Origin: Longimicrobiales bacterium | GTDB lineage: Bacteria; Gemmatimonadota; Gemmatimonadetes; Longimicrobiales; Gaopeijiaceae | DNA length: 64,000 bases | Reading direction: 5' to 3' | Assembly: GCA_965248195.1 (NCBI GenBank) | Contig: CBDFIQ010000002.1 | Span: 2,880,001 to 2,944,000 of the forward strand | Part shown: positions 4,968 to 20,318 of the stretch, in pieces | Layout of the letters: each line of letters begins with the position of its first letter | Position numbering within the stretch: position 1 is the first letter of the stretch | Notes under the pieces: generated by a model | Told to the model about the DNA's origin: nothing | The model's database searches: none | Seen by the model: only the letters and a program-made list of their open reading frames with translations | Translations under genes and position numbers: made by a program

Positions 4968-5396
4968 AACTCCCCTTGTGGCATCCAGGACGTGGTAATC
5001 CGAGTCGTGTCGGACTAGACCCGACTCTCGACCTCCTTCTCGAAGCTAAATTCTATCGAAGGAAACCGCACGAGTCTCGTGTTCGCCTCCAGATTGTGAT
5101 CTCGGGCGTTTTTCGTCCTTAGACTCCCGACAGAGGCCCGAGTTCTCTTCGCAGAGGAAAAACTATACCGCAACATTCAGGCCGTACCCGATTTCGACCA
5201 GACGCGATCGACCCGGATCAGGAAGGCTGCTGGACGAAACTCCCCGCTCTGGTGGCGCTTGCTTTCCCGGCCCAAACGCTATTTTCTAAAGCCATCGGCT
5301 TCATCGAATCGAAGCCTCGAGCCGCCGCGTCACCTTTGTTGCGTCGCCTTCAATGACATCCGAGACCACCATATTCATGAGATGCCCGTCCAAGAG

Positions 5397-5852
5397 ATGA
5401 AGAGATGCACGCGTCCCACCCCCATCCCCTTGCTCGCGGCATTCACGTTCATCATCTCTGCGTGCGGAGAACGTGGAACACCACCTTCGAGCGGGAGCGA
5501 AACTGCCACAACCGTGCCGGCGGCAGACGCTGAAGGAGCGATCGTGGAAATCGATCTCGACGAATACAATGTCCTCATGGACGCCGTCGTGCCGGCCGGT
5601 CCCGTGACGGTGATGCTGGCGAACCGGGGCTTCGAAGAACACAACCTCTTGTTCGTGGTGGTCGAATCCGACTCAACCGTCTGGGAGACCGAGCCCCGCC
5701 TGAACCCGGGGGAGAGGCGAACAGTCGATCTCGACCTCGAAGCGGGCGAATACAGGGCCGTCTGCAATTTTTCTGGGCATGAAGGCCGAGGTATGCTCGT
5801 GAATTTCGTGGTCGAGGAAAAGACTCCGAGTGGGGGCGGCTCCGACGGCTAA
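5397..5852 (+). CDS. Cupredoxin (type 1 copper) lipoprotein
   Basis: Lipobox IISAC; ligand pattern H(NL)...CNFSGHEGRGM. Start moved to ATG 5397. Confidence 0.75.
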   Translation: MKRCTRPTPIPLLAAFTFIISACGERGTPPSSGSETATTVPAADAEGAIVEIDLDEYNVLMDAVVPAGPVTVMLANRGFEEHNLLFVVVESDSTVWETEPRLNPGERRTVDLDLEAGEYRAVCNFSGHEGRGMLVNFVVEEKTPSGGGSDG

Positions 5853-5859
5853 AGGCGCC

Positions 5860-7362
5860 TCAGCCGTCCACCACGCGAAGAGCGCCGGCCATTTCGAGCA
5901 GGGACTCGACCATCCCTTCGTCACCATAGACGTCGGGCACGCCGGAGACGGGCAGCCCTACGGAACGCCCCGCATCGGCCGTCGTCGGTCCGACACCGAA
6001 GATCTGCACACCGTCGAGGTCCACCCCGGACGAGGCCAGTGACTTCGCCGCCGAAGGGCTGTACAGAAGCACTGCATCCACCCCCCTTTTAAACGCGTCC
6101 AACGCGGCGTCATTCGGCGGCTGGAGCAGCGTGTCATACACATGGAGGGTCTGGACTTCCAAACCCACCCGAGTCAACCCGTGGGAAACCTCCTCGACCG
6201 CGAGCGTCCCGCACGGGAAGAGTACCCGCTCGCCGCTCTTCGCCTCGACCCCGATCGCCTCCACGAGAGCTCTAGCTCGATACTCTCCCGGGATCAGGTC
6301 GGCACGGATCCCCGCACTTTTTAGGCCGGCCGCCGTCTTGGGACCGACCGCGGCGATCCGAGCCGCTCCGAAGAAGCGGGCGTCGAGTCCCTGACGCTCA
6401 AGCTGGCGGACGAGTCCCTCGACCCCGTGCATCGACGTGAACACCATCCAATCGTGGTCGGAGCGCGGCTCCGAGAGCTCCGCCTCGAGATATTCAATAC
6501 GGATCAGCGGTGAGTCGATCACCTCCGCTCCGAGCCCTCGAAGCTTCGAAATGACTTGCCTGCTCGCGAAGGAGGGCCGGGTCACGACCACTCGGCGGCC
6601 TGCCAGAGGCCCGAAGCCCACAGCCGGCTTATTGCCGTCGAGGCGGGCCAACCCGGCGCCCGGACCCACGATCAGCACCATCGGCGCTCGCAGACCCTCG
6701 TCGCGGACGATGCCCGCAATGGTGGCAAGGGTCCCCCGGACCTGACGCTCCCCAGGGAGCGTGCCCTCTTGCACGACCGCAGCGGGGGTCGCAACGCCCC
6801 GACCCGCGGCCATCAGGCCATCCGTCACCTCCTCCAACCGAGCGCCGCCCATGAGCACGACCGCGGTGTCCATTTTCGCCATCGCGGCGTACGGGAGATC
6901 GCGGGCCGGAAGGCCCTTTCCGACGCTCGGCGTCACTATACTCACCGTACTCGCGTGTCCGCGCAGCGTGAGCGGGATGCCGGCCCCAGTAGGTACCCCG
7001 GTCGCGCTGGTCACGCCTGGAACCACCTCACAGGGGATACCAGCCAGATAGCAGGCCTCGATCTCCTCCCACCCCCGGCCATAGATAAAGGGATCGCCGC
7101 CCTTCAGGCGGACCACCTCCTTACCGGCCCTGGCCCGCTCGATCAGGACCTCGTGGATCCGGTCCTGAGCCACCGTGTGCTGACCGGGCGCTTTGAAGAC
7201 ATCGATCAGCTCGGCGCCGGGCCTCGTGAGGGTCAAGAGCTCGGCACCGGCGAGCCGATCAAAAACGACCACATCGGCCCGCCCGAGAAGCTCCTGGCCG
7301 CGAACCGTGATGAGCCCCGCATCTCCGGGCCCCGCACCGACCAGCCACACCCGACCAGTCAA
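5860..7362 (-). CDS. cobA/hemD: Fused uroporphyrinogen-III C-methyltransferase / uroporphyrinogen-III synthase
   Basis: VWLVGAGPGDAGLIT, VVRLKGGDPFIYGRG, VVPGVTS; then HemD-like RVVVTRP, VFTS, AAVGPKTA. TTG start at 7362 overlaps the upstream stop (TTGA). Confidence 0.92.
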   Translation of the reverse strand: MTGRVWLVGAGPGDAGLITVRGQELLGRADVVVFDRLAGAELLTLTRPGAELIDVFKAPGQHTVAQDRIHEVLIERARAGKEVVRLKGGDPFIYGRGWEEIEACYLAGIPCEVVPGVTSATGVPTGAGIPLTLRGHASTVSIVTPSVGKGLPARDLPYAAMAKMDTAVVLMGGARLEEVTDGLMAAGRGVATPAAVVQEGTLPGERQVRGTLATIAGIVRDEGLRAPMVLIVGPGAGLARLDGNKPAVGFGPLAGRRVVVTRPSFASRQVISKLRGLGAEVIDSPLIRIEYLEAELSEPRSDHDWMVFTSMHGVEGLVRQLERQGLDARFFGAARIAAVGPKTAAGLKSAGIRADLIPGEYRARALVEAIGVEAKSGERVLFPCGTLAVEEVSHGLTRVGLEVQTLHVYDTLLQPPNDAALDAFKRGVDAVLLYSPSAAKSLASSGVDLDGVQIFGVGPTTADAGRSVGLPVSGVPDVYGDEGMVESLLEMAGALRVVDG

Positions 7363-8120
7363 GGTACCGAGAGCGTGCCCGAATCGATCGCTTCGAGGGT
7401 GAGCGAGGCCAACTCCGGCCACTCCAATATCGGCGGAAGGATCTTCAGGGTCTGCGGAAGGACCTTGAGGCTCGCCAGCGCGCGGCCGAGCCTTGAGAAC
7501 GTTCGGTGTGCGGTCAGGGCTTTGGCAAGATCGACCAGCACATGTCGTCCGCCTCCAAGGAGCAATGGAACGGCCACGACCGGGCGATCGCCGAGTGAGC
7601 CGGCAACGTCCGAAAGGTATGGAGATTCATCGAGAAAGGCGGTGAGAATCTCCGTACACGGAAAGGTGAGCGCCAGTTCGTCCCGAACCCACCGAGCCGC
7701 ATCCCCGCTCGAACGGACTCGCGTGGTACCATGCCCCACGAGCAGGACGACTGGATTCAGTCCCCGGCGGGTCATGTCCGTCACCGCCTCGCCCACCTTG
7801 GTCGCCAAAACGCGGGGAAATGCTGGAAGTGTGCCGATCGGAGGGGCAATCACGAAAGAACGCGACGGATCCCCCTTCGCCCATTCCTCCGGCAGGCGCC
7901 GTCGTGCGTAGTACCCACCGCTCGCCATGATCGGCACCACCACGGGGTCCTCTCCCCGAGAGCTCCGGGCTGCATCCTCAAAGCTCGGTGTGCCCTTCCA
8001 AAAGGCACACCCGAAGCGAACCCCGGGCCGGGCCTCGCGCAGGGCGTCCGCGAGTTCCAGGAGCGCCCGGTTGGCCGCCGAGCCATCGCCCGCGCCGTGC
8101 GCCGCGAGAATCACGCTCAT
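7359..8120 (-). CDS. Sirohydrochlorin chelatase, CbiX/SirB family (two domains)
   Basis: ILAAHGAG...AN, VVVPIM, second domain LLVGHGT...AFLDESP...VPLLLGGGRHV; siroheme operon context. Confidence 0.82.
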   Translation of the reverse strand: MSVILAAHGAGDGSAANRALLELADALREARPGVRFGCAFWKGTPSFEDAARSSRGEDPVVVPIMASGGYYARRRLPEEWAKGDPSRSFVIAPPIGTLPAFPRVLATKVGEAVTDMTRRGLNPVVLLVGHGTTRVRSSGDAARWVRDELALTFPCTEILTAFLDESPYLSDVAGSLGDRPVVAVPLLLGGGRHVLVDLAKALTAHRTFSRLGRALASLKVLPQTLKILPPILEWPELASLTLEAIDSGTLSVP

Positions 8121-8123
8121 GGT

Positions 8124-8450
8124 GTGGAGGCCCGTTGAAGGAGTACAGTGGGCCGCGTTGCGGATGCCACGGTCCTAGCTCCTAGGCGGAGCGACGACAC
8201 CATAGCCGTAGCTATGGCTAGGAGCTCCAACAACGGGGGCACCGCACGAAGCGTGGTCGGGGCCGTGCCACCGCAACCCTTCAACGTGTAAGGTCATGTC
8301 ATTCATGTCCGTGGGCACAGGGCGGTTGTGCGATTGATCCTGCGTCTCTCCTCCTCGCCGTAGCGTTGCTACGCCTCGTCGTCGTTCCTTGTCTGAACGC
8401 GCACAAGCGCCCTGTGCGCGACCCGCTGTACTCCTTCAACGGGCCTCTAC
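8124..8450. mobile_element. MITE-like non-coding element with 34-bp terminal inverted repeats
   Basis: The reverse complement of 8124-8157 (gtggaggcccgttgaaggagtacagtgggccgcg) matches 8417-8450 (cgcgacccgctgtactccttcaacgggcctctac) at 31/34. Internal hairpins at 8200-8217 and 8359-8373. Confidence 0.7.
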
Positions 8451-8457
8451 GCTACGA

Positions 8458-9093
8458 CTACCCGGCCGCCGAGCGAGCTCCGCTCACGAGCTCTTCGAGA
8501 GTCCATTCCCCCTCGCCGACCACCCTCATATGGAGCGTCAGCGGCCCCCGCTCGTGACCGACTCTTTCAAACTCGATCGGAACCCGGCCATAGAGGTCTG
8601 CCAAAACGTTTTCGAGTTCAGGGGTGACCTCTTCGAAGGCGGCCTCCGTCGCCGGTACGGCAAGACGATCCGTAAAACGAAAGACCATCTCATGCGTCGC
8701 AAACCGCACGGGGTTGTCCCCGGCGGTATCCTGCTCGAGTGCGGCAGCGGCCTCGAGCACGCTCACGATCGCCTCCCGTAAACGCTCGGCCAGAGTCCCC
8801 GACCCCTCCCTCTTCAATTCGTACTCGAGCCCGATACGGCCACCCGCTTCGTCCGTGCGGAGGTGCCACTCATGAGCGATCAGAAGCACTCCGGGCCCCT
8901 CCGGGACATGCGTGTAATCGTGGACGTCGACGAGCGTCCCCGGGAGACGGTCCTCCTGAATCCAACGGTGAAACACCTCGATCACCCGAGCCCGGTCGAA
9001 AGCCTCCTGGTCCTCGACGAAGACCTTCACCCCCAACCTTTGGGGCTCTGAAAGGACCCGAGCGCCCACCTCTGGCGCCGCCTGAGCGCTCAT
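8458..9093 (-). CDS. Hypothetical protein translationally coupled to the sulfite reductase
   Basis: 211-aa ORF with ATGA overlap to the reductase stop; protein-like sequence (VFHRWIQ...VDVHDYTHVPEGPGVLLIAHE). Confidence 0.75.
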   Translation of the reverse strand: MSAQAAPEVGARVLSEPQRLGVKVFVEDQEAFDRARVIEVFHRWIQEDRLPGTLVDVHDYTHVPEGPGVLLIAHEWHLRTDEAGGRIGLEYELKREGSGTLAERLREAIVSVLEAAAALEQDTAGDNPVRFATHEMVFRFTDRLAVPATEAAFEEVTPELENVLADLYGRVPIEFERVGHERGPLTLHMRVVGEGEWTLEELVSGARSAAG

Positions 9094-11375
9094 ACCGATA
9101 CCGTCTCGGCGGTCCGAACGTGGTACGAGTGGGCGGCCTCGATAAAGAGTTGGGCCTCTTCAATTCGCTGGCGAGCCCGCTCAGGCGTCGCGTCGAACCC
9201 ATTGCTGCCCTCGCCGTGCACGCGGAACAAATAGTTTCCGAACTTTCCTCCCGCGTAGGGATCGTGGAACAGGCCTGGGTCATAGAGATGGGTCTTGAAG
9301 GCGGCAACCACGTCGTCGGGATCTTCGCCGAGCCCCACCTCTTTCTCGCGCACCAGAGTTCTCGCCGCGATCAGCATCGCACGGTAGGCGATATCGGCTG
9401 CGCCCGTGGAATCCCCTTGATCCAGCCGATCCTGAGCGTCGAAGACCTCGCGCTCGCTGGCCTGAAGGCCGAACTCGACCGGCGAGACGATCTGGCCGGC
9501 ACACTCACCGATGCCCATGTCGCCCAGTGTGAACTCTCGCGGATCCCCCCAATTCGAGTAGAAGCTGCGGTCCTCCTCGTAGGTGGGCACTTCGACCAGA
9601 TCCTCTAGAAGGGTCCTGAGGCTGGGCTTACCCACACGGGTGACGAAGGCCTTGAAGCTCTCATCCCCCTCGCGCTCATCAACGTAATACTGGGTGATCC
9701 TGTCCGTGGCGGCCGGGATGTTCCGCCCCGGCACGGCGACAATGGCCAGACCATACGCTCCGGCGTTCTCGGCCCATTGGCCGCCCAGCACGATCTGGAA
9801 GTGCGGCACGTTGTATCCGTTGCGCTTTCGGCTCACGCCCCAGAAACCGATGTCCGCCATATGATGCTGCCCGCAACTGTTGAAGCACCCGCTGATCTTG
9901 ATGCGCAACCCCCGCACCACTTCATCCAACTCCCCGTTGCGCTCCTCCAAGTGCTCCATGAGCGTACGCGCCAGACCACGCGAGGATGCGATGCCGAGCT
10001 TGCACGTGTCCGTCCCGGGGCAAGCCGTGATGTCCGTGAGCGTCTCCGCCCGCGCCTCTGCGAGACCGAGCTCGTCCAGGGCGTCGTGTAGAGCGGCGAG
10101 GTCGCTCTCCCGCACCCAGCGAAAAGCCATGTTTTGCTCGACGGTCATTCGGACCGCGTCGCCGGTAAAACGCCTCGCCACGTCCGCGAGGCCCCGCATC
10201 TGATCGGCCGTGATATCACCGAGAGGCAGGTAGACCATGACCACCTTGTAACCCGGCTGCCTCTGCGGGGCCACGTTGGAAGCCAGCCACGCCGCCAACT
10301 GTGGACTCGGCGTGAGCTTGTTCGGCTCCTCGATTTGCCAGAGCGGCCCATCATGACCCTCGTGGACACCTGGAAGGAAGGCGGTCCACCGGGGATCTTC
10401 GGACAGCCCCGCGCGGTCCTCCAGGACGAGGCGCCGGAACTCCTCGATGCCGAGCTTCGCGACGAGGAACTTCAAGCGGGCGCGGGACCGAACATCTTTT
10501 TCCCCCAGACGAGCGAACACTCGAGAGATCGACTGACAGATCGGAAGCAGCTCCTCTTCGGGCAGAAACTCGTCGAACAGCTCCGCCTGGTGAGGAACGG
10601 CCCCCAGGCCTCCGCCGACATAGAACTCGAATCCACGCCGCTCTACCCCAGCCACCTCCCGAACTCGGGCGATTCCACCGAAGTCGTGCATCTTGACGAG
10701 TCCGCAGGGACGGTCGCCACATCCGGAAAAAGCGGGCTTCACCTTTCTTCCGAACTCCTGAGTATCCGGGTGTCCGAGAAGGAAATCGCTGACGGCGGTG
10801 GCGTAGGGGGTGACATCGAACGTCTGTGTCGTGCAGACTCCCGAGAGGTGGCAAGCGGTAACGTTTCTTACGACGTTGCCGCACGCCTCAAGGGTCGTGA
10901 TCCCCACAGCGCCCAGCCGCCGCATCAGATCCGGGGTTTCTTCGAGGTGCACGAAGTGCAACTGGATGTCTTGCCGCGTCGTTACGTGTAGGATCGCGTC
11001 CGCATACTCCTCGGAGACCTCCGCCAGCGCGTCCATCTGATCGGCACTGACCGAACCGAACGGATTCTTGATACGCACCATGCCCGGCGCATCCCACTGC
11101 GTACCCGGGCCCTTGGTGAGCTCGGCGTTCGGGAAGACCAGTTCCCTCGAGTTAAACCCATCGTGGCGCTGGCCGTTGTCGTACCGCTGGCCGTAAACGC
11201 CCCGGCGTAGGCGCATCTCCGCGAAGACCTCATCAGTCAGTTTTCCCTCGCGCTTCTGCTCTATCTGTCCCTCGAAGGCATCGATCTCACGCGAAAGCTT
11301 GTCGCCGACAAGCGATCCGAGCCTTCCCTTCCACTGCCGTGGCTCCGAGGTCTCAAGCTTACCGTTCGTAGTCAT
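9090..11375 (-). CDS. Siroheme/[4Fe-4S] sulfite (or nitrite) reductase with a C-terminal extension (HEPN-like)
   Basis: RLRRGVYGQR, HVTTRQDIQLH, ACGNVVRNV, ACPGTDTCKLG and SGCFNSCGQH ligand motifs. Upstream Cys leaders favour sulfite as substrate. Confidence 0.9.
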   Translation of the reverse strand: MTTNGKLETSEPRQWKGRLGSLVGDKLSREIDAFEGQIEQKREGKLTDEVFAEMRLRRGVYGQRYDNGQRHDGFNSRELVFPNAELTKGPGTQWDAPGMVRIKNPFGSVSADQMDALAEVSEEYADAILHVTTRQDIQLHFVHLEETPDLMRRLGAVGITTLEACGNVVRNVTACHLSGVCTTQTFDVTPYATAVSDFLLGHPDTQEFGRKVKPAFSGCGDRPCGLVKMHDFGGIARVREVAGVERRGFEFYVGGGLGAVPHQAELFDEFLPEEELLPICQSISRVFARLGEKDVRSRARLKFLVAKLGIEEFRRLVLEDRAGLSEDPRWTAFLPGVHEGHDGPLWQIEEPNKLTPSPQLAAWLASNVAPQRQPGYKVVMVYLPLGDITADQMRGLADVARRFTGDAVRMTVEQNMAFRWVRESDLAALHDALDELGLAEARAETLTDITACPGTDTCKLGIASSRGLARTLMEHLEERNGELDEVVRGLRIKISGCFNSCGQHHMADIGFWGVSRKRNGYNVPHFQIVLGGQWAENAGAYGLAIVAVPGRNIPAATDRITQYYVDEREGDESFKAFVTRVGKPSLRTLLEDLVEVPTYEEDRSFYSNWGDPREFTLGDMGIGECAGQIVSPVEFGLQASEREVFDAQDRLDQGDSTGAADIAYRAMLIAARTLVREKEVGLGEDPDDVVAAFKTHLYDPGLFHDPYAGGKFGNYLFRVHGEGSNGFDATPERARQRIEEAQLFIEAAHSYHVRTAETVSV

Positions 11376-11470
11376 CGGGTTCCCTTTTCCACTCCCATTC
11401 TATTCAAGCATCCAAGTAGCTGGCGCTCCGCTATCGGTTTCAGCATGCTGTTTTCCATAGATTGTGACCC

Positions 11471-11502
11471 AAAAAAAGCCGCGACCCTCGAGGGGCCGCG
11501 GC
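11471..11502 (-). terminator. Intrinsic terminator of the proximal attenuator
   Basis: Minus strand GCCGCGGCCC-CTCGA-GGGTCGCGGC followed by T7. Confidence 0.88.
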
Positions 11503-11526
11503 GTCCGCCTGAGTCTTCGCTTCTCG

Positions 11527-11610
11527 TCAACGACTCGTCGGAACGCGCCCCTCTCTAGGCGTGACCAGGCAACAACAACAGCAACAACACATGGCCGTCA
11601 GTGGAGTCAT
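11527..11610 (-). CDS. Poly-cysteine leader peptide MTPLTAMCCCCCCCLVTPREGRVPTSR (proximal attenuator)
   Basis: ATG 11610 with GAGG upstream; seven consecutive Cys codons TGT TGT TGC TGT TGT TGT TGC (11589-11569); TGA 11529-11527; GAGGGGCGCGTTCCG is complementary to the terminator 5' arm. Confidence 0.85.
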   Translation of the reverse strand: MTPLTAMCCCCCCCLVTPREGRVPTSR

Positions 11611-11702
11611 TTCCCAAGCCTCGAGATTTTCAGGGAACCGCACGTTTCGTATACCTCGTCCTAAGTTTGGGAATTACATACCTGAGTGCCCAAACCGCCG
11701 TG

Positions 11703-11834
11703 TCACTTCTTGTCCGGCGGTGACCTGAGGATAGCCTTCGCGACGTTCTCCGGGGTGTCCGGTATCTTCCGTTGCTGCGTATTGATGTCGTAGTCGTGCT
11801 TCGGCGGCCTGCCGGGCTTCTTCTTGTCTGTCAT
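11703..11834 (-). CDS. Small basic 43-aa protein at the IS end (MTDKKKPGRPPKHDYDINTQQRKIPDTPENVAKAILRSPPDKK)
   Basis: Manual translation; starts 12 nt after the endonuclease stop with AGAAGGG upstream; ends just inside the TIR; AT-hook-like KPGRPPK. Confidence 0.55.
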   Translation of the reverse strand: MTDKKKPGRPPKHDYDINTQQRKIPDTPENVAKAILRSPPDKK

Positions 11835-11846
11835 GTCGTGGCCCTT

Positions 11847-12806
11847 CTATACGGCGTGAATGGTGGCGAATGGTGGTTTGTCCTTCAGCTTCCTCGTCAT
11901 AGACGCCAACGACGGAAGATGCGGCGTGCCCAGAATCTCCAGCCAACACCGCCGGTCTCCGTTCCTTGCACGAATCGGGCCTGCATAAAGCGCGAGTGGT
12001 CCGTTCAAATCCGCTACGATCATGTTGACTTCATCAGGCGTCCAGCCTGGCGAAGTCAGATCGTCTAGTGGCAACACGGTTTGTGTACGAATGTATTCCG
12101 CGAGCAAGTCCTGCACGATCCATATAGTGCGACCGCCCCAGCTATTCGCGGCCTCCGACTTGGCGACAAGTTGCGATGCCATACGCGCCCACACTTGCCG
12201 CGTATTGACGCCGGGAGAGCGAACGGCCTCATTGGCTGGCGTATGCGCGAATAGTACAGCCCTCTTGAACGCCGCCTGTATATCGGTGCCCATCTGCCTA
12301 TTCCCACCGGACGTAGAGCACGTCATGACTTCCACGATGATAGGTGCCGAATCGTCCTCCAAGCCTCGCAATACATAATCAAGACGGTAATTGAACGTCC
12401 CGCCACTTCCTTTCTCTCTTAACGAGATTTCCGACCACACAGACACTGGTTCGCCCGCTTGAAAACCCGCGAGGCGAAACACCCGCTTGGCTAGTTCGTG
12501 ATGTTTGGCCGAAATTCCCTGCGGTCCGAACGCGAATAGGCGGTGAGGGCAGATGGCCCAGACCTTGCCCCGTGCGAAGCGAACCGAGCAAATGCCGCAG
12601 GGCAGCCAGCCGCCCGTCTCCGTGCCCACGGAAGACGAAAATAGATGCCCAAGCGACTCATCCGATGACCGTACTCGCGCCATATCTCGATTTCCGCCAC
12701 CATCACAAACAGACTCGGTGAACGGACATCGGGCCTTCCGGCAAGCATCCCCGTCCATGCCGGACTCTTCGAGCGGCTGTCCATACAACTCTTCCACTAC
12801 AGGCAT
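11847..12806 (-). CDS. Type II restriction endonuclease, NotI-like family
   Basis: N-terminal ELYG...CPF...C...CSV...ICPHR metal-binding Cys pattern; PD-(D/E)xK-like LDYVL...IIVEVMT; overlaps the methyltransferase stop. Confidence 0.75.
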   Translation of the reverse strand: MPVVEELYGQPLEESGMDGDACRKARCPFTESVCDGGGNRDMARVRSSDESLGHLFSSSVGTETGGWLPCGICSVRFARGKVWAICPHRLFAFGPQGISAKHHELAKRVFRLAGFQAGEPVSVWSEISLREKGSGGTFNYRLDYVLRGLEDDSAPIIVEVMTCSTSGGNRQMGTDIQAAFKRAVLFAHTPANEAVRSPGVNTRQVWARMASQLVAKSEAANSWGGRTIWIVQDLLAEYIRTQTVLPLDDLTSPGWTPDEVNMIVADLNGPLALYAGPIRARNGDRRCWLEILGTPHLPSLASMTRKLKDKPPFATIHAV

Positions 12807-13831
12807 AGTGTCTCCGCGACGGCCTTCGCCATTGGTGGCGGGACCGCGTTGGCTACTTGGCGATGCTGGTCAAGGTCACGCACGGAACCCGACCTACCAC
12901 GAATGGGGCCAGTAAAGACGTACGTATCAGGAAAGCCCTGTAGGCGCGCCGCCTCTCGGGGCGTGACGTACCTATCATCGGTCGGATGGTAGGGCGCTTC
13001 CCCGCAGCGCAGCGTAGGCGCGAACGACGAACGGTCGAGGCGGCGAAACTTCGTCGTGTCCTTACGTGTGAGCTTCTTGATAATGTCCGGTGGCGCATCA
13101 GGACACTTCGATAACCATAGCCCTTCCGGCACGAAGGATATGCGCTCCCTGTCTCTCGCTGGCGTTATGTCAATGTGGTTCGGCAGTGCCGGGTTTCCAT
13201 CTCGCAGCACGGGGTCTGGCATCTTGCTCAAGGCGTCGCCTACGGTCCGCCGAACCCCGTTTCCCAACGGGAAGTCGAACTGCACATCTTCACCGGGAAG
13301 GAACACAAGAAAAACGCGCTCACGGTTCTGGGGCAGACCATAGTGCAATGCGTTCAGAGTACGAACATGCATCTTGTAGCCAAGCTCTTGAAACTCCGAC
13401 GCGAGCATATGGACGGCCCGCTGTCCATCCGGCATCATCGCTCGCAAGAAATACGGAACCTGCTCTATCATGACGGCCCTGGGGCGGAAGACATCCGTAA
13501 ATCGCACCATGTCGAAAATCAGCATCCCTCGCGGGTCACTAACTCCGTTGCGCTTCCCGATCTGGCTGAACGGCTGGCATGGGGGACCGCCATGGAGAAG
13601 CCCTAGATCGCCTTTACTCATTCCGAGAAGGTCACGCATTCTGTCAGCATCAACCAACCGGACATCGACGTTCCAAACCGTCTTCTTGCGAGCGTTACGC
13701 CTGAGTGTGGTGGCGCAATGCGGATCAAAATCGATGGAGCAAACCGTTTTGAACCCAGCCTGATCCACACCAATGTCCATGCCGCCCGCCCCCGCGAATA
13801 AGCTCACTGCGCTTCCGCGATTCCGCATCAC
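12797..13831 (-). CDS. DNA (cytosine-5)-methyltransferase
   Basis: Motifs I SLFAGAGG, IV GGPPCQPFS, VI IEQV, VIII QNRERVF, IX TPREAARLQGFPD, X QVANAVPP. Confidence 0.93.
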   Translation of the reverse strand: MMRNRGSAVSLFAGAGGMDIGVDQAGFKTVCSIDFDPHCATTLRRNARKKTVWNVDVRLVDADRMRDLLGMSKGDLGLLHGGPPCQPFSQIGKRNGVSDPRGMLIFDMVRFTDVFRPRAVMIEQVPYFLRAMMPDGQRAVHMLASEFQELGYKMHVRTLNALHYGLPQNRERVFLVFLPGEDVQFDFPLGNGVRRTVGDALSKMPDPVLRDGNPALPNHIDITPARDRERISFVPEGLWLSKCPDAPPDIIKKLTRKDTTKFRRLDRSSFAPTLRCGEAPYHPTDDRYVTPREAARLQGFPDTYVFTGPIRGRSGSVRDLDQHRQVANAVPPPMAKAVAETLCL

Positions 13832-14784
13832 GCGACCAGTTCCCGGTAGCGGAGCCGTCCGCCGACCAGCCCACGCGCCACCGCGCCCATCTGGTCCAGC
13901 GTGTCTAGCGGTCGGTCGTTGAAGCGTCCGGCGAACTCCGCGACATAACGGTCCAGATGCTTCGGGCTCATGTGGTGATAGGTGCCGTAGTAGCCGCGCT
14001 TGAGGAGCGCCCAGAACGATTCCACGCCGTTCGTGTGGGCTTGGCCGTTCACGTACTCCCTGACGCTGTGGCGTACCGTAGCGTGCTCGTAGTCGCGGGA
14101 GAGCCCACCGTAGCCGCCATGGTCGTCCGTGTAGACGGTGGACCCGGCCTCGGCGTGGTCGGCAACGAACCCCGTCAGCGTCTCACCGTCTACACGATCC
14201 ACCACGCGAGCGGCTACCTGCTTCGTCTCGCGATTCTTCGCGCCAGCCACGGCGGTCTTGCCAACCGGCCCACGGCCAGCCCGTAGCTTCTTGCTCCCGT
14301 GCTTGTTCCGCTCCTTGCCGCCTATGTACGTCTCATCGACCTCGACGGGACCGGAGAACGGGGCCGGGGCGGTGCGCCACGTCTGGCGGATCCGGTGCGC
14401 CAGATGCCAAGCGGTCTTCTGCGTCACACCCAGATCACGGTGCAGCTTCATGCTGCTGGCTCCCTTAATGCCGGTCGTGAGGATGTAGATCGCGACGGCC
14501 CACACCTGATAGCCGAGCTTCGTGTCTTCCATCGCCGTGCCGACCCGTACGCTAAACCGCTTGCGGCACGACCGGCAACGGTAGGGCATCGTCGGGTGCT
14601 TCGCGCCCATTTGCACGTTATCCGACGCGCAATGCGGGCAGACCGGAGAGCCGCCCCAGCGCTGTTCTGCGAACCACCCTTCGGCAGCTTCGTCGCTCGG
14701 GAATATCCGCATCAACTCCACCCATGACAGCCCTTCGCGCTCCGCCCGTCCGGGGCCGCCGTTGTACTTGCTGTTGCCGCTCAT
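13828..14784 (-). CDS. IS1595-family transposase
   Basis: Zn-ribbon CPHC...YRCRSC, HTH SSMKLHRDLGVTQKTAW, DDE core VEVDETYIGG...VYTDD...NGVESFW. Confidence 0.95.
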   Translation of the reverse strand: MSGNSKYNGGPGRAEREGLSWVELMRIFPSDEAAEGWFAEQRWGGSPVCPHCASDNVQMGAKHPTMPYRCRSCRKRFSVRVGTAMEDTKLGYQVWAVAIYILTTGIKGASSMKLHRDLGVTQKTAWHLAHRIRQTWRTAPAPFSGPVEVDETYIGGKERNKHGSKKLRAGRGPVGKTAVAGAKNRETKQVAARVVDRVDGETLTGFVADHAEAGSTVYTDDHGGYGGLSRDYEHATVRHSVREYVNGQAHTNGVESFWALLKRGYYGTYHHMSPKHLDRYVAEFAGRFNDRPLDTLDQMGAVARGLVGGRLRYRELVA

Positions 14785-14921
14785 CTCTATGCTCCGCAAT
14801 GTGTTATCCTATATTGGTAATATAGTACCCATCACGGAGGGTCGCAAGGGGTTTGGGTACTCAGGTATGTAATCCCCCTAAGTTTCGGGTCTTTCCATTC
14901 CCGGTCTCACCCGGTTCGAAC

Positions 14922-14953
14922 AAAAAAGGCCCTCGGGAAAACCCGGCGGCCTC
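14922..14953 (-). terminator. Second, weaker terminator-like hairpin downstream of the distal attenuator
   Basis: Minus strand GAGGCCGCCGGG-TTTT-CCCGAGGGCC then T6; stem has a 2-nt internal mismatch. Confidence 0.6.
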
Positions 14954-14975
14954 TTGAACTGGAATCCAAACCCAC

Positions 14976-15003
14976 AAAAAAGCCACCGAATGTCTCCGGT
15001 GGC
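14976..15003 (-). terminator. Intrinsic terminator of the distal attenuator
   Basis: Minus strand GCCACCGGA-GACA-TTCGGTGGC then T6. Confidence 0.85.
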
Positions 15004-15031
15004 GTTTCAGGGAACCTCGTCGCGTGTATGC

Positions 15032-15127
15032 CTATACGACGTCTCCCCGATACCCCACCGGGCTCGGACAAGAACATCGGCAACAACAACTCTCGAGCAT
15101 CATGACCCGCATCCTTTTACAACACAT
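15032..15127 (-). CDS. Cys-rich leader peptide MCCKRMRVMMLESCCCRCSCPSPVGYRGDVV (distal attenuator; alternative starts 15112 or 15103)
   Basis: 7 Cys in 31 codons (5 Cys if it starts at 15103, which has AAGGA upstream); TAG 15034-15032; CCGGTGG...GGGGAGAC is complementary to GTTCCCTGAAACGCCACCGG, which overlaps the terminator. Confidence 0.78.
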   Translation of the reverse strand: MCCKRMRVMMLESCCCRCSCPSPVGYRGDVV

Positions 15128-15157
15128 CCGCTTTCTCACACATCCTTCTTAGAAACA

Positions 15158-15185
15158 ACGCTAACCGCCCGAAGTCCCCTGTCAA
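15158..15185 (-). promoter_or_regulatory. Sigma70-like promoter for the distal leader
   Basis: TTGACA (15185-15180), 16-bp spacer, TAGCGT (15163-15158). Confidence 0.6.
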
Positions 15186-15531
15186 GAGATGAGCGAGCCG
15201 GGCAACCGCCTAATGGGCCACGGTGCCGTCGGGTTCCAGACCCTCGATCCGGCATTCCAGACCCTCGATGCGGCCCGGGGTGCGCCCCTTGCTTGTGCAG
15301 AGCTTCTCTAGCGACTCGCGCATCTTCCACCCATAATTGCGCCACGGCAGCGCCGAGGGCGGACCGCCACGGAGGTAGACCACGGTGTTCAGGGGGGGTG
15401 TGTTGACGATCTTCGGCCCGATTCGTGTAAGCGGCTATGCATCCGGAGTCGGACCCTGTCGCTGTACCACGCCCCCTGGAGCGGCCGCCTCGTGTTTACC
15501 CACGACGCCGCACGGGGGGATCGGCTAAGGC

Positions 15532-16950
15532 ATGTCCAACGCGGCCCGGACATCAGGAAAACCGTTCGACCGCTCGATCGTCGAGGGCCCGATCCCGAGT
15601 GTGGTGTGGAAAATCGCCTGGCCGACGATGCTTCAGAACGTGTTGGGCGGAGTCCAGGGCATCGTGGACCACGCCATGGTAGGACACTTCGTTGGCTACA
15701 CCGGGAACGCCGCCATCGGAGTCGCATGGCAAATCTTCCTCGTGGTGATCGTGTTCATCAGCTCTGTCTTCACCGGTATGGGGGTGCTGGTCGCGCGCTT
15801 CGTGGGGGCTCGGGAGCCGGACAAGGTGAACCGGACCGTCTATCAGGCGTTCCTCACCGCCGCCGTCATGTCCATCGCGATCCTGGCGCCGCTGGGATAC
15901 GTCCTGTCGCCATCGCTTCTCGGACTGGTTAACGCCGCCCCCGAGGTGCAAGCGGAGGCCCTCCAGTACCTCCGCATCATGTTCATGTTCAGCTTCGGCA
16001 TGATCGTCTACTTCATGATCGGAGGGGCCCTCAGATCCGCGGGGGACGCACGCACGCCGCTCCGTCTCGGCATCATGCTCACCGCGCTCAACATCACGCT
16101 GAACGTCATTCTCATTCCGGGGTTGGGACCGATCCCGGCATTTGGGACCACCGGCGCGGCCATGGGCACCGTCATCGCGGGAGCCCTGATGGCGGTGGTC
16201 TACGTCTACTTTCTTTTTTCCGGAAAATGGGTCGTGGCCTTTCGCCGCGGCATGAACTGGAGGCCGGACTTCGGGATCATCCGGGAGCTGTTCCGCTTCG
16301 GGCTTCCGACAGGCCTGCAAGGCGTGGCGATGAACGCCGGAGGAGTCATGCTCCTCGCATACATCGGGTCTCTACCCCAGAGCGGTGAAGCCCAGGCCGC
16401 CTACGTGATCAGCTATACCCAACTCTTTTCGCTGATCACCTGGACATCGGCGGGCCTATTGGGTGCAACTGCCGCGGTCTCCGGACAGAACCTGGGTGCC
16501 GGACGACCGGAACGCACGATCGAGGCGGTTCACGTGGCCTCGTGGATCGGGCTGGGGGTGGCCGTGACCGTTGGCGTGCTCTTCCTCACGATACCGCGCG
16601 TCCTCTTGGGGTTCTTTGGAGTGGAAGATCCGCTTGTCACCCAAATGGCCGTCCGTCTGCTCTCATTCTTGAGCGTGTCAGGCCTTTTCATTACCGTCGC
16701 GCTCGCCTACACCGGCGGGCTCCAGGGAACGGGGGATACGCGGAGTCCATTTTACATCTCACTGGTCTCGCAGCTCATCATCCCGATCGGCATCTGCGCC
16801 ATCCTTCAGGCAACCGGGAATCTCCAGGCAACCTACATATGGCTTGCCATCCTGATCGGGCACATGACCCGATGCGCCCTCAGCGTCATCCGTTTCCGGC
16901 AGGGCAAGTGGCGTGACATCAAAGTGAGCATCGAGCCGGTGCGGTCGTAG
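15532..16950 (+). CDS. MATE family efflux transporter
   Basis: KIAWPTML...VDHAMVG, GALRSAGDARTPL, GLQGTGDTRSP; about 12 TM segments. Confidence 0.92.
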   Translation: MSNAARTSGKPFDRSIVEGPIPSVVWKIAWPTMLQNVLGGVQGIVDHAMVGHFVGYTGNAAIGVAWQIFLVVIVFISSVFTGMGVLVARFVGAREPDKVNRTVYQAFLTAAVMSIAILAPLGYVLSPSLLGLVNAAPEVQAEALQYLRIMFMFSFGMIVYFMIGGALRSAGDARTPLRLGIMLTALNITLNVILIPGLGPIPAFGTTGAAMGTVIAGALMAVVYVYFLFSGKWVVAFRRGMNWRPDFGIIRELFRFGLPTGLQGVAMNAGGVMLLAYIGSLPQSGEAQAAYVISYTQLFSLITWTSAGLLGATAAVSGQNLGAGRPERTIEAVHVASWIGLGVAVTVGVLFLTIPRVLLGFFGVEDPLVTQMAVRLLSFLSVSGLFITVALAYTGGLQGTGDTRSPFYISLVSQLIIPIGICAILQATGNLQATYIWLAILIGHMTRCALSVIRFRQGKWRDIKVSIEPVRS

Positions 16951-16971
16951 GAACCGGTGCGGTCGTAGGAA
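16936..16971. repeat. Perfect 18-bp tandem duplication spanning the MATE stop codon
   Basis: ccggtgcggtcgtaggaa x2. Confidence 0.85.
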
Positions 16972-17026
16972 AAGGACGCGCCCCGGGGAGACCGCGGTCA
17001 GAAAGAACAGAGGGCGGGTACGGCCG

Positions 17027-19444
17027 TTAGAACACGGGCCTTCGCACCGGCCGCAATAGAAACAGCCCCTCCTGCGTGCTGCTCACCACGACCGTTCCAC
17101 TCTCGAAAAACGGATAGGCCGTCCACGCGCCCGACATCGTCGGTGGATTTCCCTCATACGGAGTGGTGTCGAAGAAGCCAATCTCTTCGGGATTCTCCGG
17201 ATTACTGATGTCCAGAACCCTCAGACCCGCCTGGTAGTTGGCCTGGTACATCCGGTCGCCGCGGATGTACAAATTGTGATCCGTCGCGGTCGTGGAGCCG
17301 AAATGTTCGGCCACCAGGACCGGATCGTCCAACTCGGCGACATCCCAAACGAGTGTGCGGGTACGCTCGGCCAGTGCCGTGAGCTCGTCGAGCTCGTCGT
17401 TCATGTAGTAGTACCGTTGGTCCTCGGTCAGCCACCCTTGGTGGATATAGGCCATGCCGGGATAGGTCGCTGAAGCGATCGACACCGGATCGTCCTTGTC
17501 GGTGACGTCCACGATCCGAAGCGCTGTCTCGTTGGACGCGAAGCAAATCTGGCGTCCCCGAAAATCGGCATCGGGCCCGACGTACTCCACACACTGAGCA
17601 TCGTGGGTCCGACCCGCCCACACGAGGCCCTCGGTGTCGGTGTAACATCCCGCGAACGTCGGCGTGAGCGGGTCGCGAATGTCGACCATGTGCAGACCTC
17701 CTCCGCACGTGTCACCCCCACCCGACGCACCGACGGGAAACGCGAATCCACTCTGCGTATCGATGACGAGATTATGCGCGGAGGCGATGCCATCGTAGCG
17801 CGCGTCGGCCGTGAGGGTCACCGGGGGTTCCCTCACGTCCCGGAGTCTTCGGAGGTCGAACACGGGCATCCCCGTATCGCCGCCTCCGATGAAGAAAGCG
17901 TGGTCTGCGTAGACCTTGATGTCCTGAGCCGTGCCACCCTCCGCCGCCAACAAACCGACATATGCGGGTAGCGACGGGTCCGTGATGTCGACCACCGAAG
18001 CTCCGCCGATACGTGCGACGAGAGCATACTCTCGGCGGGTTTCCGGATCCGTCCATCCCCACACGTCGGTTATGCCCCCGGCAAGAGCCGGGCTCCCCGG
18101 CGAAAGGCCCAACTCCGAGAGAGGCAGGAACGCGAGCAGATCGACATCGTTACACTCGAACTGATCGGCCTGACCCTCGGCGCAGAGCACTTCCTCTCCC
18201 GTGATCATCGGAAGCGCAGTGGGAAGACTCAGCCAGTCACCCTGACCCCACCGCCCGTTGGCCGGCCGCGAAAAGACCGCGGCCCGGCCCCTTCCCCCAT
18301 CCGCACCTGGAGCCCCCGCGACCGCGACGTTACGGCCTATCGCCACCGTCGAGCCGAGAGCGAACCCCGCCTCGACATCCCGCACCGAAAAGATCTCAAC
18401 CGCCTGCCAGACGTCACCGCTACGGTTGCGCACGAACCGGTGAACCCCACCCCTGCCCTCATCGGTACCGGGCGCGCCGACCAACAACTCGTTTTCTTGG
18501 AACGTGAGAGAAGACCCGAAAAGATCGCCGATCATACGCGCTCTCGGCGCTATGCGGTCCTGCTCCGTCCAAGTTCGGCGCGCCTCATCCCAGGTGTACT
18601 CGACGACGATGCCGCGCGACTCGGCCGTTCCAGGATGGCCAATCAGCGCCGCCTCGCCATCGATGGCGACCGCGGCCCCAAAGCCGCTGTTGGGGAAGGG
18701 GCTGGGGGCCGAGATGAGCACATCTTCGCTCCATTCGCCGGAAACAGGATCCCGCGAAAAGATGTATGCGGCACCTGATCGCCCATGCCCGGGCGCGCCC
18801 ACGATCGCCAGATCGCCCCTGATCATCAATGAGGCACCAAATCGGTCGTCACGTTGTGGCTCCGAACGCTCCAATCGGGCCCGCTCGACCCTCGCGCCGG
18901 AGCCGGCGTTCCGCTCGAAGACTCTCACGCCGCCGAGCCCCCCGATGGTGGCCACCAACGCTCGCTCACCATCCGTATCGACGACTCGTAGAGGTGGCCG
19001 GAGGATCTCCACCAGCGCCGCGTAATTCCACTGGGCCTCACCGCCATTCGAATCAGTCACGAGTGGGAGGCTCTCCACTCGGCTCCAGCGGCGCAGGGCG
19101 TTACGCTGGAACAAGTGGGCGCCCCACCGCTCATCGGCGTCGCCGGCCGCTACGACCAGCATGTCCCCGGAAACGGCGATGGAGGGGCTCAGGCCCTCAC
19201 CCGTCGAGGTACTCCCCTCCGCGCCGAGCTGATCCACCACCTGCCAAACACCCTCGACATCCCTCTGGTAAACCAGGGCCGCTCCCGGTCCTTGCCCGTA
19301 CGTTGGCTTGAGCACGAGGACATCATCGCCGACGACCCCGACCGCACTTCCGAATCCGCCTTGAGCAGAGAGGGGAGTGAAAACGATCGCTGGGAGTAGG
19401 ACCCCGAGGAAAACAGCGAGGGACGTCATGGTCATACGATTCAT
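17027..19444 (-). CDS. Secreted choice-of-anchor-B-like protein with N-terminal FG-GAP repeats
   Basis: Signal peptide from ATG 19444; FG-x-A/S-V/L...VGAPG repeats; DVWGWTDP, HDAQCV, YIHQGWLTED, DHNLY, GAWTAYPFFESG. Confidence 0.82.
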   Translation of the reverse strand: MNRMTMTSLAVFLGVLLPAIVFTPLSAQGGFGSAVGVVGDDVLVLKPTYGQGPGAALVYQRDVEGVWQVVDQLGAEGSTSTGEGLSPSIAVSGDMLVVAAGDADERWGAHLFQRNALRRWSRVESLPLVTDSNGGEAQWNYAALVEILRPPLRVVDTDGERALVATIGGLGGVRVFERNAGSGARVERARLERSEPQRDDRFGASLMIRGDLAIVGAPGHGRSGAAYIFSRDPVSGEWSEDVLISAPSPFPNSGFGAAVAIDGEAALIGHPGTAESRGIVVEYTWDEARRTWTEQDRIAPRARMIGDLFGSSLTFQENELLVGAPGTDEGRGGVHRFVRNRSGDVWQAVEIFSVRDVEAGFALGSTVAIGRNVAVAGAPGADGGRGRAAVFSRPANGRWGQGDWLSLPTALPMITGEEVLCAEGQADQFECNDVDLLAFLPLSELGLSPGSPALAGGITDVWGWTDPETRREYALVARIGGASVVDITDPSLPAYVGLLAAEGGTAQDIKVYADHAFFIGGGDTGMPVFDLRRLRDVREPPVTLTADARYDGIASAHNLVIDTQSGFAFPVGASGGGDTCGGGLHMVDIRDPLTPTFAGCYTDTEGLVWAGRTHDAQCVEYVGPDADFRGRQICFASNETALRIVDVTDKDDPVSIASATYPGMAYIHQGWLTEDQRYYYMNDELDELTALAERTRTLVWDVAELDDPVLVAEHFGSTTATDHNLYIRGDRMYQANYQAGLRVLDISNPENPEEIGFFDTTPYEGNPPTMSGAWTAYPFFESGTVVVSSTQEGLFLLRPVRRPVF

Positions 19445-19706
19445 CCGATTCCGGGACCAGCGTTTCAGGATCTTTACCCAAAGGGGGACGAAGAGCAACA
19501 CCGTGACCCGTCCACCATTCCAGCAAGGAACGCGCCGGAAACCGAAGAGTGCCCCCTGGGTGTATTGCGCCAACGCCTCCAATGCGGCAAAGTCGAAACC
19601 GGGAACAGAGGGGTGGTAGGGGGGATTGGACTTTCTGGACCAAAGCCACCCGGCGATGAACGCTACCGAGGAGAGCCGTCGAATGGGTAAAAGCCGCAAG
19701 GATGTC

Positions 19707-20318
19707 ATGAAACCGATCCTGGCATTGCTGGGCGTTACTGTCGTGCTGACCCTGGGGACGTGGCTGGTCATGGGGTCCGAGCCCCGGCTCGGGCCACACG
19801 ACGGCTTGGACCTCCCCGGAGTAGATACGGGAAGGGTCGCGGTCGGCGACGTCGCCCCGGACTTCTCGCTGGTGAGCTACGCGGGCACTGTGACCACGCT
19901 CTCGGACTTCCGAGGCGACAAGAACGTCGTCCTCGCCTTCTATCGAGGCTATTGGTGACCTTTTTGCGCCCGTCAGTTCGGGGAACTGAGAGACCTCCTG
20001 TCTCCGGAGCAGAGAGCCAACACGGAGATCCTTGCCATATCGGTGGATGACCACGATGAACAGCAGATGATGATCGACCGGGTCGCCGAGGAGTATGGTG
20101 GGCTCATCGAGTTTCAACTGCTGCAGGACCTGGACCACGCGGTCATGGACCGTTACGGGCTTTTCAACCCCGATGACTCGCAGAGGCGTGCGATCCCACA
20201 TCCCACCACGTTCGTTATCGACAAGCAGGGAGTCGTGCGTTGGAAGTTCCTCGAGATCAATTTTCGGATCCGGCCCACGAACGAGGACATCCTGGCGGCG
20301 GTGGCGGAGCTGGAGTAG
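19707..20318 (+). CDS. Peroxiredoxin-like (AhpC/TSA) selenoprotein with UxxC motif
   Basis: Track ORFs 19626-19958 and 20043-20318 are in frame. TGA 19956-19958 reads FYRGYW-U-PFCARQ. Downstream hairpin TCAGTTC-GGG-GAACTGA; P(T)[12 protein letters not shown] fold motif. Confidence 0.88.
19973..19989 (+). promoter_or_regulatory. Putative bacterial SECIS hairpin
   Basis: 7-bp stem with GGG loop, starting 14 nt after the in-frame TGA. Confidence 0.6.

Follow-up and report, generated by a model that had tools for sequence, protein, structure and literature searches.

Two short, cysteine-rich leader open reading frames (ORFs), A and B, each with predicted switchable terminators, stand in series before sulfate-assimilation genes in a 64,000-nucleotide stretch of a Longimicrobiales bacterium genome (contig CBDFIQ010000002.1; this whole stretch is the window throughout), and the arrangement recurs elsewhere in its marine Gemmatimonadota genus. 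We conclude from sequence comparison that the tandem of predicted cysteine attenuators is real and conserved, probably with a double-terminator relay, and that it is a variant of classical attenuation, not a new system. We put at about 0.75 the probability that A and B are ribosome-mediated transcription attenuators placed in series, that each reads charged tRNA-Cys and that one promoter serves both; the tandem probably switches the downstream genes on only under cysteine shortage. In the window, an insertion sequence (IS) of the IS1595 family lies between the two cassettes. An earlier note, made from the letters of the window, had removed it to reconstruct a leader running from promoter through leader A, terminators, leader B and terminator to the first gene, and IS-free relatives carry this order intact before their sulfur genes.

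Anatomy of the tandem leader

Leader A, terminators T1 and T2, leader B, terminator T3 and the operon all lie on the minus strand of the window, and the leader is composed as follows (terminator folding energies were set against 200 shuffles each):

15158..15185, minus strand: predicted sigma-70-type promoter (TTGACA, 16 nt, TAGCGT), from sequence prediction
15032..15103, minus strand: leader peptide A, 23 aa, CCCxCxC, from an ORF scan, conserved in 8/8 same-genus genomes with the locus
15055..15061, minus strand: antiterminator segment inside leader A, predicted to pair with the T1 5' arm, from pairing and constrained folding
14976..15003, minus strand: predicted terminator T1, 9-bp stem and U6, -16.3 kcal/mol, z -5.7, beating 200/200 shuffles
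14922..14951, minus strand: predicted terminator T2, imperfect stem and U6, -16.7 kcal/mol, z -2.8, beating 199/200 shuffles
11653..11662, minus strand: putative Shine-Dalgarno-like element before the upstream start of B, nearly invariant in 13 sequences
11527..11643, minus strand: leader peptide B, 38 aa from GTG 11643 or 27 aa from ATG 11610, from an ORF scan and alignment
11547..11553, minus strand: antiterminator segment inside leader B, predicted to pair with 11490-11496 (T3 5' arm and loop), from pairing and constrained folding
11471..11502, minus strand: predicted terminator T3, 10-bp stem and U7, -22.0 kcal/mol, z -4.3, beating 200/200 shuffles

Both leaders are rich in the codon of the end product, as expected of a classical attenuator: five of the 23 residues of leader A are Cys, and leader B holds seven consecutive Cys codons (11569-11589) before its stop at 11527. 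Three intrinsic terminators (T1, T2 and T3) are predicted between the leaders and the first gene. When the entire genome (4.86 Mb) was scanned for short Met-started ORFs with at least four Cys in nine codons followed by a hairpin and a U-tract, there were two hits, leaders A and B, and nothing further. TGT makes up 9/12 of the leader Cys codons (11569-11589, 15068-15088) vs. ~32% in the long ORFs of the genome, the latter being a rough count that includes spurious frames. Rfam covariance models gave two sub-threshold matches over positions 5000-20000 of the window, none of them a leader or a riboswitch. The promoter before A retains identical hexamers and the 16-nt spacing in 25/25 rows and forms invariant columns in alignment A1 (18 rows).

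The tandem in relatives without the IS

We found that a search with the reductase protein encoded downstream of the leaders matched 9/11 same-genus genomes, eight of which have it at full length with its upstream region, and we added 16 metagenome loci (three of them duplicates of another row) retrieved with a 34-nt pattern from leader A, a search by design blind to B-only forms. The closest named records are Gemmatimonadota, mostly Longimicrobiales. Leader A, T1 and T2 are present in 8/8 same-genus genomes with the locus; an intact leader B and T3 follow directly behind A, with no IS, in four of them (L002, L005, L006 and L008), three are without B and one has a truncated B. The metagenome loci comprise 10 tandems, 4 A-only forms and 2 truncated forms. 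The co-occurrence of both leaders upstream of orthologues, a point raised in the earlier note, holds in these tandem loci and not in the rest, where B is missing or truncated. In the IS-free tandems, A and B are ~60-100 nt apart with no gene between them (4/8 genomes, 10/16 metagenome loci), which removes the possibility, raised in the earlier note, that another cys gene had originally separated the leaders. DNA searches of whole genomes found A in 8/11 and B in 5/11, counting a fragment; B was not found elsewhere in the genomes without it at the locus, one of which is a single contig of 95% completeness.

The empty site presupposed by the reconstruction is real: IS-free relatives carry it, and some, such as L008, L035 and L041, have the target 8-mer once. 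Over the 10 pairs formed by the five tandem genomes, core identity is 92-96% for A and 87-93% for B, as compared with 59-78% at four-fold degenerate sites of the reductase gene and 45-92% in the spacers. B is under purifying selection where present, yet dispensable.

Three broader sequence signals were set aside. A 12-nt motif common to the regions before T1 and before B in the window is not shared in relatives and was dropped; a loose leader-A pattern, which hit at least 119 stretches of genome contigs, mostly in unrelated taxa, was not used; and a loose leader-B pattern matched 164 of 401 genomes of the phylum, with controls similar in number, and was regarded as noise.

Predicted switching in cassette A

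The leader A peptide is nearly invariant, including its CCCRCSC motif, and 7/7 pairs between the A antiterminator and the T1 5' arm are invariant among 18 sequences, this segment lying partly inside the metagenome search pattern. We modeled the ribosome as a block that extends 13 nt beyond the codon and folded 12 loci for A and 11 loci for B under this constraint. With the ribosome at the A stop, T1 formed in 12/12 loci; a ribosome placed at the third Cys gave the antiterminator a probability of at least 0.75 in 9/12 loci (L004, L007 and L041 fail); and a stall at the last Cys gave antitermination in 0/12 loci. The models thus clearly support a ribosome-controlled terminator switch in A.

The 5' arm of T2 repeats that of T1 and is hence able to pair with the T1 3' arm, a pairing that we call the relay. 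Between these two arms 96% of the cells are paired, and variants in the T2 5' arm mostly retain the relay pairs as G-U. When the antiterminator was enforced, the relay helix had a probability of at least 0.6 in 20/25 rows, and when T1 was enforced, T2 formed (at least 0.8) in 24/25 rows (3 of the 25 are duplicates). These foldings suggest that T1 and T2 are probably coupled by relay pairing. An in-frame extension upstream of leader A (15112-15139, minus strand) has two extra Cys codons here and in L006 and L008; most relatives are without these codons.

Predicted switching in cassette B

The GTG that follows the Shine-Dalgarno-like block of B is ATG in L041, a second conserved start lies 33 nt later, and L044 has a frameshift between the two. 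The Cys run varies in length from 4 to 9 with the frame to the stop unbroken, and 6/7 pairs of the B antiterminator are invariant among 13 sequences. In the 11 folded loci, a long stem sequesters the T3 5' arm before its 3' arm emerges (0.58-0.73 with the ribosome at Cys vs. 0.19-0.48 at the stop). As modeled, a ribosome-controlled switch in B is supported by folding only kinetically.

Origin of the two cassettes

A scan of the 4 kb before 77 reductase loci found a Cys leader with a terminator at 19 of them, namely all 8 loci of the genus and, each with a single leader, 11 of the other 68; the scan is not exhaustive and missed B in L167 and the single leaders of L226 and L239, which were seen by eye. 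Four single leaders from other Gemmatimonadota (L205, L226, L233 and L239) align mutually, and since their profile weakly finds B and not A (best E 7e-5 and 5e-4), B is probably older. Sequence comparison accordingly favors B as the older cassette, probably belonging to a single-attenuator family of related Gemmatimonadota, to which A was added in this genus. Recent paralogy of A and B was rejected, as neither profile retrieves the other cassette (best E 0.78 and 1). No fewer than five distinct deletion junctions occur among the A-only and truncated rows, and in a tree that is resolved in part these rows are interspersed with tandem ones, a pattern indicative of a tandem ancestor with repeated loss of B. 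Within the genus, the reductase tree leaves most branchings unresolved, and in the DNA tree the L031 branch is very long; the loss counts are not based on trees alone. L199 (3734-3900) has a single Cys leader with a directly duplicated terminator of independent origin, suggesting how T2 arose; the related loci L185, L196, L203, L206 and L212 have one terminator. Single Cys leader-terminator cassettes also stand before reductase or siroheme-synthase genes in L174, L205, L226, L231, L233 and L239, which are other Gemmatimonadota and one Acidobacteriota record.

An IS1595 element between the cassettes

The element that splits the tandem in the window carries the following features:

11669..14877, minus strand: IS1595-family element with 28-nt inverted repeats, from repeats, target duplication and transposase profile
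13828..14799, minus strand: IS1595 transposase, PF12762 and PF12760, NF033547 above cut-off
12797..13831, minus strand: passenger C-5 cytosine DNA methyltransferase, PF00145, E 4.6e-57
11847..12806, minus strand: passenger ORF, 319 aa, no family, from ORF calling

Its 28-nt terminal inverted repeats are 93% complementary, and an exact 8-nt target duplication, CTAAGTTT, flanks it at 11661-11668 (B side) and 14878-14885 (A side); duplication lengths of 5-7 and 9-11 gave no match. Target duplications of the IS1595 family are typically 8 bp. The transposase is of the IS1595 DDE type with an N-terminal zinc ribbon and passes the family cut-offs; the IS is present as a single full copy in the genome, and every gene in it is co-directional with the leaders. 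Removing 11669-14877 with one copy of the duplication places the last distal U-tract 94 nt from ATG 11610, all on the same strand, which is the figure the earlier note had given; the distance is 112 nt to ATG 11592 and 61 nt to GTG 11643.

As it stands, the IS puts 3.2 kb between the A and B gates. It contains a promoter-like site directed towards B (14847-14819, with a mean of 1.3 expected by chance from shuffles), and no minus-strand terminator was detected inside it. B may therefore be placed to gate IS-driven transcription of the reductase operon. Contig joints that skip the IS occur in runs X1, X5 and X9, with intervening sequence unknown and 90% likeness, and may come from related strains. 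The end of one X1 contig coincides with 11668, which hints weakly at a fork; where X1 contigs span the IS junctions, they have 30 and 29 flanking letters, short of the 31-letter threshold; and contigs of RNA run X22 over 11315-11544 and 14909-15084 may be DNA and were excluded as support.

The methyltransferase gene overlaps the 319-aa ORF (together 11847-13831, minus strand), possibly as a mobile restriction-modification pair. The 319-aa product has no match in Pfam, NCBIfam or PDB sequences, and a restriction endonuclease partner is our guess from context. Near-identical contigs of this passenger region (11847-13831) occur in runs X5 and X9. Next to the inverted repeat, the IS ends with a short ORF of ~43 aa that has a Lys/Pro-rich start (11700-11835, minus strand) and resembles a transposase tail of the IS1595 type that has become detached. 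A second, distant IS1595-like element is found at G000:C2:2996100-2997400, with 68% identity over 539 nt of transposase.

Downstream operon and loss of cysH

The genes behind T3 are the following:

11376..11470, minus strand: 5' untranslated region remaining after cysH loss; relatives carry cysH here, and T3 lies 95 nt before the reductase gene
9090..11375, minus strand: siroheme sulfite/nitrite reductase, 761 aa, PF01077 and PF03460, under every NCBIfam equivalog cut-off
5860..9093, minus strand: rest of the predicted operon, comprising a 211-aa ORF, a CbiX-like chelatase and a fused uroporphyrinogen-III methyltransferase/HemD, from gene calls and profiles

The earlier note had the reductase as the first gene, and this is true of the window and of L002; in 7/8 relatives the genes begin with cysH (above the PRK02090 and TIGR00434 cut-offs), which was lost from this genome and from L002 at apparently different junctions (11376-11470; L002 1440-1500). 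The adjacent cysH of relatives and the siroheme genes point to an assimilatory sulfite reductase, and the downstream genes fit cysteine synthesis. A tblastn search of this genome for cysH gave nothing beyond one weak 51-aa match (E 0.008), and without cysH this genome may reduce sulfite but not activated sulfate. The 211-aa ORF (8458-9093, minus strand) has no family and overlaps the reductase stop; with counterparts behind the reductase in L172, L174, L205, L226 and L239, it is possibly a conserved partner of this reductase type.

Discussion

The anatomy, its conservation, the IS-free tandem and the predicted pairings are established, and from the known logic of attenuators we infer leader translation, the cysteine response and a joint transcript; the relay and the effect of the IS would be further steps of the model. 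In this model, one promoter would give a leader of ~500 nt carrying both attenuators. With sufficient cysteine, the ribosome would run to the A stop and cover the antiterminator, T1 would form and end transcription, and T2 would catch read-through. When cysteine is short, the ribosome would halt on the first Cys codons of A, the antiterminator would capture the T1 5' arm, and the freed T1 3' arm would capture the T2 5' arm, such that a single stall would disarm both T1 and T2. A second ribosome would then stall on the Cys run of B, disarming T3 and allowing transcription of the (cysH)-reductase-siroheme genes. Read-through would approximate the product of the gates, lowering the basal leak, with B as the older and partly redundant gate. 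In this genome, B would probably gate transcripts from the co-directional promoter of the IS itself together with read-through from A. It is possible, at somewhat less than even odds, that the whole is a selected cascade of three terminators and two ribosomes that reads one amino acid twice and makes the cysteine switch tighter or steeper than a lone attenuator could, and the same tentative proposal holds that the second gate keeps the IS-driven operon of this genome under cysteine control.

Several results weigh against the serial model or parts of it. B is missing or truncated in 4/8 genomes by different deletions, with A kept in 8/8; this repeated loss weakens the idea that the second gate sharpens the response and suits partial redundancy equally well. 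The conservation of A in alignment A1 is partly by construction, as 10/18 rows come from loci that an A-derived pattern retrieved. In L004, no Cys position of A gave a switch. The relay fails in 5/25 rows even when favored, and at free equilibrium in the window, with the ribosome at Cys1 or Cys3, it loses to T1 and T2 together, so that it depends on folding order. Complete T3 likewise wins at equilibrium in 7/11 loci; a ribosome at the last Cys of B brings it under 0.5 in 4/11 loci only, and in the window it stays at 0.76-1.0; the B switch therefore requires co-transcriptional trapping. Finally, when set against 500 shuffles, covariation was not above the shuffles for T1 with T2 (418/500), T3 (384/500) or the B antiterminator (500/500; one pair of the B-structure model, columns 148/181, is mis-specified and never pairs), and that of the A antiterminator with the relay (11/500) is within what relatedness can give. 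Helix pair counts show 93-98% pairing with changes that are mostly G-U-compatible and no convincing covariation; the sequences are too close for covariation to be informative.

We considered four other explanations. The tandem could be an evolutionary intermediate, in which A and a new promoter were placed before an old B-cysH unit and B, now redundant, is decaying, with no selected tandem function. The resemblance of B, and not of A, to the single leaders of the four other Gemmatimonadota loci (by weak profile matches) and the scattered B deletions against the constant presence of A would suit such a history; however, where B is retained its core comes close to A in conservation and greatly exceeds synonymous sites, and the Cys run of B changes length without breaking the frame, and we consider this explanation unlikely, although it carries appreciable weight. 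We are similarly doubtful that there is no relay and that T2 damps transcription without regulation or is left over from a duplication of T1: duplication alone could explain the common 5' arm (compare L199) and the relay loses at equilibrium in several loci, but the T2 5' arm stays complementary to the T1 3' arm at positions that are mismatched in the stem of T2 itself, the neighboring spacer diverges to 46-92%, and if T2 were constitutive the operon would stay blocked even under starvation.

It is less probable still that leader B has its own promoter, read by another sigma factor, which would make A and B alternative entries instead of serial gates. A conserved block lies directly upstream of B, insertion of the IS between the two leaders is tolerated here, and our promoter scan between the leaders covered sigma-70-type sites only. 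However, that block reads as a Shine-Dalgarno sequence with an in-frame GTG/ATG start and in L005 comes directly after the T2 U-tract, A would have no gene of its own to control, and no sigma-70-like site recurs between T1 and B across 15 rows, the best single scores being scattered. As to the independent promoter that the earlier note had named as a possible objection, no conserved sigma-70-like site lies before B. Finally, the Cys-rich peptides might be functional products (metal or thiol binding) or might sense redox state or metals through nascent-peptide stalling, not tRNA charging, and the near invariance of leader A would agree with this; but conservation of the DNA extends to synonymous positions and to the non-coding pairing arms, the B run varies from 4 to 9 Cys, and both leaders stand at attenuator spacing from terminators before cysteine-pathway genes, which makes this a very remote prospect.

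Two attenuators in series that both read charged tRNA-Cys have partial counterparts among known leaders. The thrZ T-boxes, the Bacillus subtilis rtpA T-box with its leader peptide and the double leader peptides of ermA are all multi-module leaders. As in tandem riboswitches and T-boxes, several sensing modules share one leader and each is able to end transcription; here the sensor would be the translating ribosome in both. A tandem riboswitch example is B. clausii metE (as cited in PMC3641672). The earlier note had called tandem leader-peptide attenuators rare or undescribed, which is too strong, as Salmonella mgtCBR has been published: its leader ORFs mgtM and mgtP are tandem attenuators that sense ATP and Pro-tRNA additively and without intrinsic terminators (PMC3641672). 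Both systems have two leader ORFs in one 5' leader, each linked to alternative stem-loops; they differ in that both ORFs here have Cys codons and intrinsic terminators, whereas mgtCBR reads two different signals (PMC3641672). No two same-amino-acid attenuators in series, and no attenuators in Gemmatimonadota, were found in the open full-text literature, outside which most subscription papers lie.

With the E. coli trp and Salmonella his leaders, the present locus shares an ORF of end-product codons, an overlapping antiterminator, an intrinsic terminator and a biosynthetic operon (PMC3641672, 10.1101/834739); it differs in that its signal would be cysteine and in having two leader ORFs and three terminators one after another. 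A predicted Cys-codon upstream ORF with an intrinsic terminator, uORFC-8-2, precedes cysS in Rhodobacterales (PMC8632094), as a single cassette with two Cys codons that controls a tRNA synthetase. Poly-Cys leaders are also known from Actinobacteria, without terminators (PMC1262725), and mycobacterial polycysteine small ORFs are reported to mediate cysteine-responsive attenuation (preprint 10.1101/834739); these resemble our leaders in being poly-Cys ORFs, and differ in being leaderless and in acting by translational control of a Shine-Dalgarno sequence with no intrinsic terminator (10.1101/834739, PMC1262725). The word 'tandem' does not occur in the main text of either source. With tandem leader-peptide attenuators published and intrinsic Cys attenuators predicted before, the novelty of the present system is reduced.

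If true, the serial model would carry same-ligand tandem sensing, known from riboswitches and T-boxes, over to attenuators that have intrinsic terminators and are read by ribosomes, and would do so for intrinsic cysteine attenuation, which is a prediction only in the literature surveyed. Natural single (A-only), truncated-B, double and IS-split leaders within one genus form a comparison series from which the value of a second gate could be measured directly. Since duplication of a terminator creates a relay at once, the locus also suggests a simple route to tighter attenuation.

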